From: Thermoplasmata archaeon
GTDB lineage: Archaea > Thermoplasmatota > Thermoplasmata > Lutacidiplasmatales > UBA184
Direction: 5' to 3'
Assembly: GCA_035297105.1 (NCBI GenBank)
Contig: DATGZO010000012.1
Coordinates: 63,822 to 127,821 of the forward strand
DNA: 64,000 nucleotides
Part shown: in pieces, positions 2,865 to 54,034 of the stretch
Position numbering within the stretch: the first letter of the stretch is position 1
How the letters are laid out: every line of letters starts with the position of its first letter
Made by a program: the position numbers and the translations under genes
The notes under the pieces: generated by a model
What the model was told of the DNA's origin: nothing
Seen by the model: the letters and a program-made list of their open reading frames with translations, nothing else
Database searches by the model: none

Positions 2865-3443
2865 TCACGGACCGCTCCGGCGGGGTCGGACGACCCGTTG
2901 GAGGGCCCGGACCGCGGGTCGCCAATCCGCCTCGATCTCGTCCTCGAGGTCAGAGAGCCCGGCGATCCCCTCGGGGAACGGGTAGAGCGACCGGGTGAGG
3001 TAGACGTGGGCGAACGCAGCGTTCGACGGCTGGGTCCAGCCTCGGTCGGCCTCGATGACCGAGTGGTACTCGTAGTATTCGGGGGCCGGGACCAACCAGA
3101 CGAGACCGTCGTCCGTGCCCCGGCCGGCGCGGGGGCCCCGCTCGACCACCCTCAGCCCCAGATAATCGATAAGAGCGGTCGGGAGGGCGAAGACGTGACG
3201 GTCCCCCGGACGGGCCGTGGCGACCAGACGGCTGCGAACCGTCTCGACCGCGAGCACCTCCCGCGCGGGATGGGTCGCGACCACCCGGGCGATCCGGGGG
3301 CCCCGGGCCAGGAAGGAGATGCTCCGACTCGTATCTCGGTGGGTCCCCTCCTCGGGTCGGTACCCGATCAGCTGGGCGACCTCCCTCGGGAGCTGGAGGC
3401 TCAGCCAGGACGGGTGCGACGCCCAGACGACGACGTACTCCAT
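2865..3443 (-). CDS. Hypothetical protein
   Basis: 192-aa ORF on the same strand as, and adjacent to, the previous hypothetical. No motif recognised. Confidence 0.4.
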   Translation of the reverse strand: MEYVVVWASHPSWLSLQLPREVAQLIGYRPEEGTHRDTSRSISFLARGPRIARVVATHPAREVLAVETVRSRLVATARPGDRHVFALPTALIDYLGLRVVERGPRAGRGTDDGLVWLVPAPEYYEYHSVIEADRGWTQPSNAAFAHVYLTRSLYPFPEGIAGLSDLEDEIEADWRPAVRALQRVVRPRRSGP

Positions 3444-35108: not shown

Positions 35109-35183
35109 GGGACTGTGGGGTAGCTTGGTCCATCCTTCGGGGTTCGGGACTCCGAGACGCCAGTTCAAATCTGGCCAGTCCCA
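35109..35183 (+). tRNA. tRNA-Pro (anticodon CGG)
   Basis: Acceptor GGGACTG/CAGTCCC plus discriminator A. Anticodon stem CGGGG/CTCCG with loop TTCGGGA (U33, CGG, G37). T-arm GCCAG-TTCAAAT-CTGGC. CCA not encoded. Confidence 0.8.
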
Positions 35184-39703: not shown

Positions 39704-39777
39704 GGGCTGGTAGATCAGTTCGGAAGATCGCCGGTTTTGCAAACCGGAGGTCTCGGGTTCAAATCCCGACCAGTCCA
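39704..39777 (+). tRNA. tRNA-Ala (anticodon UGC)
   Basis: Acceptor GGGCTGG/CCAGTCC with G3:U70 (the Ala identity pair). D-stem GATC/GATC. Anticodon stem CCGGT/ACCGG with loop TTTGCAA. T-arm TCGGG-TTCAAAT-CCCGA. Confidence 0.85.
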
Positions 39778-50809: not shown

Positions 50810-52564
50810 TCACTGGAGAGGACCGCTGTTCTTGCTGTCCTCGGGAGGCGGGACCTCTTCGGGGAGGGTTGAGATCTCGGGCATCTCCCGGTTCCCGGTG
50901 AACGTCTCTGGTAGCTCGGTGGAGCGGAGCCCGGGTGCCCGCGCCAAGTCCACGGGGGGCAGGTCGGGGTTGCGCTTTCGCCACGGAATCCGCGCCGCCC
51001 CCGCCACCAGTCGGCGCGGGAGGCCCAAGGAAGTGCCGATCCGTCGGACATCCTCCTGGGTCAGTTCGCCGATTCCGGCGAGGACGAAGAAGTAGACCGT
51101 GAACCCGATCAGCACGGCGGCGAACAGCTGGTAGGAGGAGCTCACTGGGAAGAGATGGTAGTGGTTGAGGAGATAGAGGGCCGAAAACGCACCGGCCGCG
51201 CTCGCCGTGATGCCCCCGATAGAGATCGGTCGAATGTGCACCCGGATGAGGGTTTCCATGAAGTAGCTGTTCATCGCCAGGGCGGCGAAGGACGAGGCGA
51301 GAATCGCCACGGAGCCGGCCACGATCCCGGGGTGGATCTGGAGCGGCCCCCAGGGAGGCATCAGGAGCGCGAGCCCGGCGAGGAGGACCATGATCTGGGT
51401 GCTCGTGATGTAAAGCTCGAGACGCTGCCGACCGATCGCGTTGATACTGGACTGGATGATCTGGCTCAGGGCGAGCGGTACGGCACCCACGGCGAGAAGG
51501 GCGAGGGCGAGCGAGCCCTGGTTCGCGACGTTTGTCGTCGCGAATACGTTGAGGAAATTGTAGCGGTAGACCACCAGCGCTACAACCCCCGGGACGAGCA
51601 GCATCGCCGAATACCGGAGCGCCTGCCACGTTCCGGTCCGTATCGCTTCGTACCGCTCCTGCCGATGCAAACCCGCGAAATAGGGGAAGAGCGGAGTCGT
51701 CACCGCCCCCGGCAGCGAGAGGACGAGCACGCGCCACCCGTTGGCGATGAGGAACACGGAGAAGGCGGCGGCGCTCACGCCGATCTTGATCAGGAGCGGG
51801 ACCGTGTTCGTGACGAGGTAGTTCAGCATCAGGCTCGCCATGAGCGGCCAGGCGAAGCGAAACATGCGGGTCGCTTCGGACGAACGCCAACCGGAGAGGT
51901 GCTTCCATACCGCGGGCAGGCTGTATACCGCGGAACTCGCGGCCCCGACCATGTAGGCGAACGTGATCCCGAGGATCGTCGGGTTGTAGTACGCGACGTA
52001 GAACAGGACCGGCAGACGAACGGTCGCCTCGACTAAGGAGGGATACTGCGCCTTGAGCGAGTTGCCCTGGCCGATGAACATCTGGTTGTAGACTGTGGAG
52101 AACGACCAGAAGATGGGCAAGGAGATGAACAGACCGAACGCCTCCAAGTCAACGCCCGGGCTCGCGATCTGGCCACCGGCGATCGAGGTCGGCGCGATGA
52201 CGAAGAGGACCAGTCCTACGACCCCGACCATCGCGGTCCGGGCGAACAAGTACGTGGTCGTGTTGTCGGTCGCGGATTTCCCCCGTGCCAAGAAGTAAGT
52301 GTACGCGGTCCCGAGGCGGAGGTCGCCGATGCCGTTGATGGAAGAGGCGATCAGCAGGAAGAACTGCGCCGTGCCGAGGAGGGCCAGGCCGGAGTTGTTG
52401 ACCCCGAAATGCTTCTGAAGGAGCACGTTGCCGGCGTACCCGATCAGTTGGACGAGGAGACTGACGGCGAAGACCGCGCCAGAACTCAGGGCGAGCGAAA
52501 ACGCCTGCTTCGGGACCGCGACGGGGGGTGCGGTCGCCCCCGTTGCCGGTCCGGAAGCCGCCAC
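50810..52564 (-). CDS. Polysaccharide-biosynthesis / oligosaccharide flippase family (Wzx/MOP superfamily) membrane protein
   Basis: At least 12 TM helices with the PST-family pattern. GTG start at 52564 inferred; the upstream track ORF is artefact. Confidence 0.6.
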   Translation of the reverse strand: MAASGPATGATAPPVAVPKQAFSLALSSGAVFAVSLLVQLIGYAGNVLLQKHFGVNNSGLALLGTAQFFLLIASSINGIGDLRLGTAYTYFLARGKSATDNTTTYLFARTAMVGVVGLVLFVIAPTSIAGGQIASPGVDLEAFGLFISLPIFWSFSTVYNQMFIGQGNSLKAQYPSLVEATVRLPVLFYVAYYNPTILGITFAYMVGAASSAVYSLPAVWKHLSGWRSSEATRMFRFAWPLMASLMLNYLVTNTVPLLIKIGVSAAAFSVFLIANGWRVLVLSLPGAVTTPLFPYFAGLHRQERYEAIRTGTWQALRYSAMLLVPGVVALVVYRYNFLNVFATTNVANQGSLALALLAVGAVPLALSQIIQSSINAIGRQRLELYITSTQIMVLLAGLALLMPPWGPLQIHPGIVAGSVAILASSFAALAMNSYFMETLIRVHIRPISIGGITASAAGAFSALYLLNHYHLFPVSSSYQLFAAVLIGFTVYFFVLAGIGELTQEDVRRIGTSLGLPRRLVAGAARIPWRKRNPDLPPVDLARAPGLRSTELPETFTGNREMPEISTLPEEVPPPEDSKNSGPLQ

Positions 52565-52717
52565 GCGGAGACCCTCCTCCGAATGACGGGGCCCCCCTCT
52601 TATCCCCGCTGGTCCACCCGGCGCAGGGCGTCCTCCGCGCTCCGGGTCCCCGGAGGAGGCGACTAGGGGCAGCGACGGCGGACTCAGGCGACGCTCAGCC
52701 CAGTGGCGGGAGAGGGG

Positions 52718-52878
52718 ATGGGAGCAGGGGGATTTGAACCCCCATATGCGGGTCTCTCCGCGCGCTCCAGTCAATCGTCATGGGGGCGGGAACCGCCCCT
52801 CCGCAGACCCATATCACAGGGGGCTCGAAAGCCACCCTGACTGGAGCCCGCTGGTCTACCAAGTTAGCCTATGCTCCC
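52718..52878 (-). tRNA. Intron-containing tRNA gene (about 161 nt between acceptor ends; anticodon not confidently resolved, GCG/Arg under one model)
   Basis: Minus strand: 5' GGGAGCA pairs with 3' TGCTCCC + A. Canonical T-arm GGGGG-TTCAAAT-CCCCC. About 87 nt more than a mature tRNA lie between the D-region and the T-arm, including the 7-bp hairpin GGGGCGG-TTC-CCGCCCC. Candidate stem TGGGT/ACCCG with loop CTGCGG|A. TATA-like AAGGATATCT about 27 bp upstream. Confidence 0.6.
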
Positions 52879-52993
52879 TCCAGAGTTTCGGAGTGGACCG
52901 ACAAGATATCCTTTGCTGACGGGCACGGCAGCCGTCCTCCCGGGGGGACGGGTTTCGTAACCTTTATGTTCAATTACGTTTGCCGCGAGTACA

Positions 52994-54034
52994 ATGTCAT
53001 TGAATCGTTCGCCCGATGGACCACGGTCCGTCACGGGCACGCTCGTCGTGGTCGCGATCCTGTTGACCGCGGGCGTCGCGGTGATCGCCACTGCCGCCTA
53101 CTACGGGGCCCGCGGAACGACCACGGCCGGGACGGTCACCGTCGTGGATGATCTCGGCCGAACGGTGACGGCGCCGGCCGACGCGAGCCGGGTGGTCGTC
53201 CTCGCGCCGAGCGTAATGGACATCGTCTATCGACTCGGACTCAGGGACCGAGTGGTGGGCGTGGGGTGCACTCCACAACTTTACGGTGGGATGCTGGACG
53301 AGTATTCTCCCAACCAGACCGCGCTCTGGAACCTGACCAGCTCGATGTGCGTGACGGATTTCCCGAACCTGAATACAGAGGAGGTCGCCACTCTCGCTCC
53401 CCAATTGGTCCTCGCGTCCACCCTGACCTCGGCCGGCGACGTGGCGAAGCTCGTCACCACCTACAACCTGCCCGTGGTCCTCTTGGCCCCGTCGACCCTC
53501 GACGGGATCGTCGGCGATGTCAACCTCGTCGCGGAACTGTTCCCCAGCGTCCGCACGGTCGCGACGGCGCTCGACGCGAGCTTGGAGGGGATCCTGGCCA
53601 ATGCAACGGCGTTCGACACCCTCCTCGCGGACAATGGGACCGCGATCCCCTCGGTATTGCTGACCTACTATTTCGACGCGGGGGGGTACTACACGTACGG
53701 GCCGGGTACGTTCGGACAATCGCTCATCGATCTCGCCGACGGCTCGAGCATTTCGGCGGGGGTTCCACTCGAGTACGCCGAGATCAACGCCACCGTGGTG
53801 CTGGCCGACCAGCCGACCGTATTGATCTACGGGACCAGCTGGAACGACCCCTACCTCGTATTGAACGAGACCCCGAGCGCTTGGCCGAGCGCCCCCTACT
53901 GGGGTCAGCTGGACAGCTCCAAGATCCCGATCGACGTGACCCTGCTCACGGAGGCGGCCCCATCGATGCTGCTCGAACTTCCCTGGTTCCTCCACTGGCT
54001 CCACCCGACGCTCGCCCCGGTGCCGACGGGCTGA
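52994..54034 (+). CDS. ABC transporter substrate-binding protein, class-III/type-8 (iron-siderophore/cobalamin BtuF/FhuD-like), membrane-anchored
   Basis: N-terminal TM, then 'TVTAPADASRVVVLAPSVMDIVYRLGLRDRVVGV', typical of the BtuF/FhuD family. Confidence 0.65.
   Translation: MSLNRSPDGPRSVTGTLVVVAILLTAGVAVIATAAYYGARGTTTAGTVTVVDDLGRTVTAPADASRVVVLAPSVMDIVYRLGLRDRVVGVGCTPQLYGGMLDEYSPNQTALWNLTSSMCVTDFPNLNTEEVATLAPQLVLASTLTSAGDVAKLVTTYNLPVVLLAPSTLDGIVGDVNLVAELFPSVRTVATALDASLEGILANATAFDTLLADNGTAIPSVLLTYYFDAGGYYTYGPGTFGQSLIDLADGSSISAGVPLEYAEINATVVLADQPTVLIYGTSWNDPYLVLNETPSAWPSAPYWGQLDSSKIPIDVTLLTEAAPSMLLELPWFLHWLHPTLAPVPTG

Follow-up and report, generated by a model that had tools for sequence, protein, structure and literature searches.

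That the intron of an archaeal tRNA-Trp gene can itself contain a guide RNA has been textbook knowledge since 2001. Intron-encoded box C/D guides of pre-tRNA-Trp have been described in Haloferax volcanii and Pyrococcus abyssi (Clouet d'Orval 2001 and Singh 2004, as recounted in PMC4090602, PMC6313347 and PMC2584109), and box C/D RNAs in tRNA-Trp introns have been tabulated across archaea (PMC2584109, Additional File 4). With the intron as guide, L7Ae, Nop5 and fibrillarin make Cm34 and Um39/Cm39 of archaeal tRNA-Trp (PMC6313347; PMC4090602). In the table, the introns of halophiles have UGACGA/CCGA boxes and a hairpin of 20-25 nt between D' and C' (PMC2584109, Additional File 4). The same table includes introns from Thermoplasmatales, namely T. 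acidophilum, T. volcanium, P. torridus and F. acidarmanus, to which we add a metagenomic relative (L073/L125). These Thermoplasmatales introns are about 60 nt long and contain no hairpins; they have a D' box CUGA, a C' box UGAUGA, spacers of 12-13 nt, a D box AUGA and a terminal stem.

The locus considered here lies on the minus strand of a 64,000-nucleotide stretch of DNA (the window). On its sequence and predicted folding, it is a tRNA-Trp(CCA) gene of 160 nt including its intron (52719-52878), with one intron at the canonical position 37/38, because removal of 87 nt after position 37 gives the anticodon loop CUCCAGA (U33, anticodon CCA, G37, A38) and a perfect cloverleaf (spliced 73-mer, -34.6 kcal/mol). 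From 52878 to 52719 the minus strand reads GGGAGCA-UA-GGCU-AACUUGGUA-GACC-A-GCGGG-CUCCAG-[87 nt]-A-CCCGC-AUAU-GGGGG-UUCAAAU-CCCCC-UGCUCCC-A. The 5' exon (tRNA positions 1-37; 52841-52878) thus comprises the acceptor strand, the D-arm, the 5' strand of the anticodon stem (GCGGG) and the loop nucleotides CUCCAG, with the anticodon CCA at 52842-52844. According to the Rfam alignment and the spliced fold, the 3' exon (52719-52753) consists of A38, the 3' strand of the anticodon stem (CCCGC), a 4-nt variable loop, the T-arm, the 3' strand of the acceptor stem and the discriminator A73 (52719); no CCA end is encoded. The Rfam tRNA model (RF00005) matches the locus at model positions 1-71 with 44.5 bits, where 29 bits would pass; the E-value, calculated over all 64 kb, is 3.3e-6. 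In this alignment, the D-arm GGCU/AACUUGGUA/GACC is normal, the anticodon stem is GCGGG/CCCGC, and the D-arm, variable loop and T-arm are free of insertions. The one insertion is a single 91-nt unaligned block in the anticodon loop, within which the geometry of the splice motif sets the ends of the 87-nt intron (52754-52840). A covariance model of our own gives the gene 201 bits and its orthologues 155-200 bits. Indirect signs of the isotype also point to Trp: A73, the pair G1-C72, and the homology of the intron to introns that occur in tRNA-Trp alone.

The initial annotation had described an intron-containing tRNA gene interrupted by some 87 nt; the excess over a mature tRNA is exactly 87 nt, and the minus-strand acceptor stem GGGAGCA/UGCUCCC followed by A and the T-arm GGGGG-UUCAAAU-CCCCC that it named are present. 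Its end-to-end length of about 161 nt was one too many, as the gene spans 160 nt and base 52718 lies past the discriminator. The anticodon that it proposed, GCG (Arg), is replaced by CCA. What had been taken for an anticodon stem, UGGGU/ACCCG, is the D' guide:target complementarity described below, and the supposed loop CUGCGGA is the end of the guide plus the D' box. An intron of about 46 nt had been placed at about position 37/38 of that arm; the intron is instead a single insertion of 87 nt at the canonical 37/38 site. Excess sequence in the D-arm region, with a GGGCUC/GAGCCC pairing and a second intron, had also been suggested. The D-arm aligns normally in both the Rfam and RNAalifold analyses; GGGCUC corresponds to stem bases 29-31 plus loop bases 32-34, and GAGCCC falls in a variable hairpin of the intron and is not conserved in orthologues, where for example GGUCCCC or GAGGGC is found. 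We found no second insertion flanked by a bulge-helix-bulge (BHB) motif at the locus, and one excision suffices for the cloverleaf. Rfam, the spliced fold and RNAalifold instead agree on another mature tRNA, whose only intron is at the canonical site; the annotation itself had named this outcome as grounds for rejecting its reading. Among the checks that the annotation had recommended, a run of ARAGORN makes no call at this locus, and BHB folding together with comparison of orthologues bears out a BHB intron at the canonical site while contradicting the tRNA-Arg and multi-intron reading.

ARAGORN, applied to the window, does not call the tRNA-Trp gene. It does call a 94-nt 'tRNA-Arg(gcg)' at 3202-3295 (plus strand), which has no Rfam tRNA match even at E<=10 and is probably a false positive in G+C-rich sequence; its anticodon coincides with the one proposed by the initial annotation for the real gene. 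The tRNA-Pro(CGG) at 35109-35183 and the tRNA-Ala(UGC) at 39704-39777, both on the plus strand, are ordinary intron-less genes on which ARAGORN and Rfam agree. No second tRNA-Trp gene was found within the 64-kb window. The gene is flanked by a divergent gene for a periplasmic binding protein (52994-54034, plus strand), and downstream of it on the same minus strand is a polysaccharide-synthesis/flippase gene. The longest open reading frame of the latter (50810-52774, minus strand) begins with a TTG start inside the tRNA gene; its first ~90 codons are of low complexity and are probably not translated, being an upstream over-extension. Given this overlap, automatic ORF calling could mask the tRNA-Trp gene.

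An exon-anchored pattern search of Thermoplasmata MAGs yielded eight loci, and a looser pattern search of metagenomes yielded at least 118, mostly from soil and peat; from the search loci we took 103 distinct genes with a shared layout. Four of the eight MAG loci are in AcS1-67, AcS11-62, SubAcS13-64 and SubAcS15-120, which belong to Ca. Lutacidiplasmatales with 67-69% G+C (PMC9287336). The G+C content of the window is 66-71% throughout, and its host is likely a high-GC soil archaeon of the Thermoplasmata, similar to Lutacidiplasmatales. The exons are near-invariant in more than 100 loci from many samples, and the T-stem shows compensatory changes. When the genes are aligned with the covariance model, 98% of cells are paired and 24 pairs have double changes. 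None of 500 shuffles reached these values, and slid controls were 39-52% paired. Supplied with 101 aligned homologues and no structure, RNAalifold recovered the cloverleaf, the 4-bp helix with both bulges of the splice motif, and both hairpins of the intron.

The sequence upstream of the gene is also conserved. A promoter-like element, CAAAGGATATCT (52904-52915, minus strand), is located at -37 to -26 relative to the mature 5' end and recurs in more than 100 orthologous loci. The AAGGATATCT found upstream is part of a wider motif, ACAAAGG(A/C)TATCT at -40 to -26, that is conserved in more than 100 loci with diverged flanks; the TATA-like box reported by the initial annotation belongs to this motif and is borne out by its conservation. 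Immediately before the mature 5' end, a GGA at -3 to -1 (52879-52881, minus strand) is essentially invariant in more than 100 loci. The 3' trailer (52700-52718, minus strand) is pyrimidine-rich (UCCCCUCUCC, CCUCUCC...) and has no T-run. The GGA leader and the pyrimidine trailer could pair with each other, or could be a signal for RNase P or termination in this lineage.

The intron boundaries form a BHB motif, with 3-nt bulges AG/U and AG/A on opposite strands and a 4-bp helix between them. The 5' splice-site bulge, A36 G37 / U(i1) (52840-52842, minus strand), consists of three unpaired nucleotides between the central helix, whose 5' strand is C32-C35, and a hairpin of the intron (hairpin 1); it is invariant in the 103 sequences. 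C32-U33-C34-C35 pair with GGAG, which is intron nucleotides 82-85, and this helix is paired in 99.5% of cases. After GGAG come the bulge of the 3' splice site, A G / A38 (together 52753-52759, minus strand), and then the 3' strand of the anticodon stem. Cleavage after the second bulge nucleotide fits at both ends. The inner helix, which is the anticodon stem, has five G-C or C-G pairs and is 99.8% paired, beyond the two base pairs needed, and the exon junction of the spliced tRNA-Trp is invariant in the 103 orthologues. This geometry is identical to that in the H. volcanii pre-tRNA-Trp drawing, which, in Additional File 3 of PMC2584109, has a 3-nt bulge, a 4-bp helix and a 3-nt bulge. A contiguous outer helix between the intron ends is impossible here, as i2 (C) faces C81. 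Directly after the 5' bulge, hairpin 1 (i2-i24; CAGGG.GGCU-UUCG-AGCC.CCCUG; 52817-52839, minus strand) is a covarying local hairpin that begins exactly at i2 in 103 of 103 sequences. It is represented by 92 distinct sequences, in which the pairs C-G, A-U and G-C are invariant and the inner pairs covary. We predict from this model that hairpin 1 acts as the outer helix of the splice motif; we propose that it starts at i2 in every sequence because it supplies the helix beyond the 5' bulge.

The intron, whose length is 84-93 nt among the 103 orthologues, reads U-[hairpin 1]-UGAUAU-GGGUCUG-CGGA-[hairpin 2]-C-AUGACGA-UUGACUGGAGCGCG-CGGA-GAG. Hairpin 1 is followed by UGAUAU (52811-52816, minus strand; family consensus N-G-A-W-W-N), a degenerate box C remnant in the position of the Thermoplasmatales box C, UGAUUA. 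Its GA lies within 6 nt of the end of hairpin 1 in 100 of 103 sequences, at an offset of 0-1 in 82. Next is the D' antisense element GGGUCUG (52804-52810, minus strand), conserved at 91-100% per position, which makes 7-8 bp with C35-C41 in the spliced tRNA, or pairs with i86-C41 in the precursor. The nucleotide at the fifth position upstream of the D' box, a G, faces C39, and this register is kept in about 90% or more of the 103 genes. The D' box is the variant CGGA (52800-52803, minus strand; invariant in 103 sequences). Hairpin 2 (GGGGCGG-UUC-CCGCCCC; 52783-52799, minus strand), whose 84 distinct sequences have double changes at all seven pairs, supplies the canonical stem of an internal k-turn. 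The C' box is the variant AUGACGA (52775-52781, minus strand), which is RUGACGA in the family, invariant apart from R, and is preceded by the L1 nucleotide at 52782. CGGA, hairpin 2, the 3-nt loop and UGACGA have k-turn geometry, in which the D' and C' boxes form tandem G.A pairs plus C-G and G-C pairs; an internal C'/D' motif is thus present, with a Watson-Crick C-G where U.U (or C.C) is usual.

After the C' box comes a second antisense element, UGACUGGAGC (52764-52773, minus strand), which is complementary to G31-G37 plus intron nucleotides 1-3. This perfect 10-bp complement is unique in the window and spans the 5' splice junction, and 9-10 bp of it can form in all 103 sequences. It is important to note that the search pattern prescribed the core of this element; the 3' extension of the core, CGCGCGGAGAG, lies outside the pattern and is nearly invariant. 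The sole GA-containing D-like box after this element is an invariant CGGA (52757-52760, minus strand), located 14 nt after C' and overlapping the central helix of the BHB motif. Overall, the 103 genes show no or almost no variation in the two CGGA boxes, in RUGACGA, in the splice helix and in the bulges. Between the second antisense core and the splice helix is a palindromic GCGCGC (52761-52766, minus strand; in the region of intron nucleotides 75-80), which varies in two of 103 sequences. It could extend the pairing to G27-G29 of the 5' exon or mediate dimerisation of precursors.

Some members of the family depart from this pattern at the D' guide. The antisense element is shifted by 1 nt (GGUCUUG) in L010, L028, L095 and L110, and is degenerate in L038, L052 and L013/L101. 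In members with a shifted or largely lost D' guide, the k-turn and the second antisense element are intact, which suggests a weaker constraint on the position-39 guide in this minority. Two genes on AT-rich metagenome contigs, L047:2838-2994 and L099, are tRNA-Trp genes with two introns from an unrelated, probably crenarchaeal lineage, and look quite different from the gene in the window. One of their introns, of about 19 nt, is inside the 5' strand of the anticodon stem; the other, at 37/38, contains a k-turn (ACGA/UGAGA), but a box C cannot be recognised in it. On L047, another tRNA with an intron is located 400 nt upstream (L047:2336-2432). We dropped these genes as evolutionary intermediates, given their two-intron tRNA-Trp and AT-rich, unrelated lineage. 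Multi-intron tRNAs and non-canonical introns of Thermoproteota resemble the gene in the window in being archaeal and in depending on BHB splicing, but the window gene has one intron, at the canonical site only.

Going by these sequence features, the intron is a diverged homologue of the box C/D guide RNA of archaeal tRNA-Trp introns, because both antisense cores (GGGUC.. and UGACUGGA..) and the order of the elements match the form in Thermoplasma. The comparison with Thermoplasmatales, made with the table and L073/L125, is within the same phylum. The introns share the start UCAGGG, L073 has the acceptor stem GGGAGCA in common with the window gene, and the guide cores ..GGGUC.. and (G/U/A)UGACUGGA.. 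are homologous: GGGUCUG corresponds to ..GGGUCAU CUGA of T. acidophilum, and UGACUGGAGC to GUGACUGGAACU of Thermoplasma. The box C remnant resembles the UGAUUA type of Thermoplasmatales, and the element order GGGUCUG-CGGA-hairpin-AUGACGA-UUGACUGGAGCG is that of the Thermoplasma intron. Relative to Thermoplasmatales, the family has two hairpins inserted, and both the AUGA box and the terminal stem's 3' half are gone. With the guide introns of H. volcanii and P. abyssi, the window intron shares its host, tRNA-Trp with anticodon CCA, and the canonical 37/38 site; a BHB motif with a CUCC/GGAG central helix and an A-G bulge; two antisense elements directed against both strands of its own anticodon arm; a D' guide that sets nucleotide 39 at N+5; and guide-paired and splice-competent folds that are mutually exclusive. 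Halophiles and Methanosarcina likewise have a C' box of the UGACGA type and, between D' and C', a hairpin; in the tRNA-Trp introns of halophiles, UGACGA serves as the C/C' box.

There are, however, clear departures from the H. volcanii and P. abyssi design. The window intron has no canonical box C, box D or terminal stem, its D' box is CGGA, with C-G replacing U.U (or C.C), and its D' spacer is 7 nt. Its sole post-guide GA box, 14 nt from C', shares nucleotides with the splice helix, and its outer BHB helix is a local hairpin instead of paired intron ends. Box C (RUGAUGA in canonical form) is reduced to N-G-A beside hairpin 1, no stem can be drawn that would join it to a box D (CUGA), and the flank of the downstream CGGA cannot pair with the flank of box C. 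In the window, 7 nt separate D' from the box C remnant, which is also the mode of the family (range 7-12), and 14 nt separate the 3' CGGA from C'; usual spacers of archaeal guides are 10-12 nt (PMC7994747). At 12 nt after C', where Thermoplasma has its D box AUGA, the window has CGCG and no GA-containing box. Two candidate substitutes for the missing terminal motif were rejected. A k-turn of the box C remnant with the NUGA at the start of the second guide shows no covariation (53 of 100 paired versus 47.6 expected, p~0.15), and a terminal stem from the 3' strand of hairpin 1 and the 3' GAG has only two of three pairs. A scan of the locus with Rfam E-values gave no match to a C/D family, just weak chance matches. 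As the intron lacks several of the features that define a canonical dual-guide C/D RNA, we file the locus as a lineage-specific variant of the known tRNA-Trp intron guide, and not as a plain member.

The 14-nt spacing matters for the second target. The nucleotide at the fifth position upstream of the 3' CGGA pairs with C32, and a guide for C34 would require the D box to be at CGCG; N+5 thus falls at C32 and not C34 because the GA box sits 14 nt from C'. That 2-nt indels in guides shift targets by 2 nt has been reported (Lui et al., PMC6009581). The 3' CGGA may be a mere by-product of the splice helix, because H. volcanii also ends ..CCGGAGAU/A and has its D box further upstream. By analogy with the characterised guides, C39 is the most securely predicted methylation site; the second predicted site is C34 by homology or C32 by the fifth-nucleotide rule.

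The predicted folds of the precursor agree with the two-conformer behaviour that has been described for pre-tRNA-Trp. The MFE structure is the guide-paired fold (-81.4 kcal/mol, z=-3.25), in which UGACUGGAGC pairs with G31-G37 and intron nucleotides 1-3 and the 5' splice site is buried. The cloverleaf/BHB fold has -63 to -68 kcal/mol, and the two folds are mutually exclusive. From the sequence, we consider it likely that this precursor tRNA-Trp with its BHB intron at 37/38 is a diverged box C/D guide acting on its own anticodon arm. By extension from homologous systems (PMC4090602, PMC11408192, PMC6313347), L7Ae would bind the k-turn and recruit Nop5 and fibrillarin. The guide-paired fold would come first, masking the 5' splice site, and in this state the anticodon arm would receive its ribose methylation, whether in cis or in trans from a different precursor or from an excised intron. 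The RNA would then refold to the cloverleaf and BHB motif, with hairpin 1 as outer helix, whereupon the splicing endonuclease would cut in both bulges and the exons would be ligated.

Several other explanations must be weighed. The D' antisense element of 7 nt keeps its register with C39 and a conservation of 91-100%, while the linker bases next to it are free to vary; the k-turn boxes do not vary among the 103 sequences, and the GA of the box C remnant is kept in 100 of 103. This pattern speaks against the possibility that the intron is a relic, descended from a C/D guide but now directing no methylation, with the k-turn and complementarities retained for folding of the precursor or the timing of splicing (e.g., L7Ae-assisted folding or masking of the 5' splice site). 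Purely folding roles would allow compensatory changes, and the conserved blocks have none. The relic explanation would nevertheless account for the degenerate terminal C/D motif, the lack of a GA box at the canonical 12-nt spacing, and a D' spacer below the archaeal range of 10-12 nt (PMC7994747). Moreover, the splice helix alone explains the 3' CGGA, hairpin 1 has a clear predicted splicing role as outer helix, and H. volcanii can do without the intron and the methylations that depend on it (Joardar 2008, cited in PMC4090602). We consider a relic unlikely, though it has some weight. A bolder version of the guide hypothesis is that Lutacidiplasmatales-like Thermoplasmata have rebuilt the intron as a single-k-turn guide, in which the terminal C/D motif and stem are lost, a hairpin serves as outer helix, a D-like box is fused into the splice helix, and a 2-nt offset retargets methylation from the wobble nucleotide C34 to C32. 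Methylation of position 32 is otherwise served by the protein enzyme TrmJ. We regard this version as doubtful; if true, nature would here have retargeted a guide by means of an indel, and the same nucleotides would serve both a C/D RNP and a splicing substrate.

The failure of ARAGORN to call the gene might raise the idea of an unexpressed pseudogene or a chance tRNA-like sequence, but the long intron may account for this miss. Since the exons hardly vary among over 100 loci, drawn from many samples, compensatory changes are present in the T-stem and in the two hairpins, and a promoter-like motif is conserved upstream, we find a pseudogene highly improbable. Least credible of all is a tRNA-Arg(GCG) with the anticodon arm UGGGU-CUGCGGA-ACCCG, an intron of ~46 nt at 37/38 and, in the D-arm region, another intron at a non-canonical position. 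The window does contain the complementarities that underlie this proposal, UGGGU/ACCCG and GGGCUC/GAGCCC. However, the Rfam tRNA model gives a normal D-arm, the stem GCGGG/CCCGC and one insertion, and the splicing proposed yields no cloverleaf, as the single-intron model does. In addition, known tRNA-Trp introns have a D' guide and box that GGGUCUG-CGGA matches, and the unconserved GAGCCC belongs to hairpin 1, which is internally paired and has 92 different sequences.

The preferred reading, a tRNA-Trp whose intron is a diverged box C/D guide, leaves the basic picture of archaeal tRNA processing unchanged. It corrects the annotation of this genome's tRNA-Trp, which was skipped by ARAGORN and mis-typed as Arg by eye, and it extends the known guide RNA of tRNA-Trp introns to Thermoplasmata of soil and peat. 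The approximately 100 natural variants amount to a ready-made mutational series, in which the k-turn boxes, both antisense cores and the splice helix are constrained, and the hairpin sequences and the linker are free. If the divergent features are functional, this family would provide a test of whether the C/D RNP needs the canonical two-motif architecture and 12-nt spacing, of whether a 2-nt indel shifts methylation from C34 to C32, and of a splicing endonuclease acting where the outer helix comes from a local hairpin.
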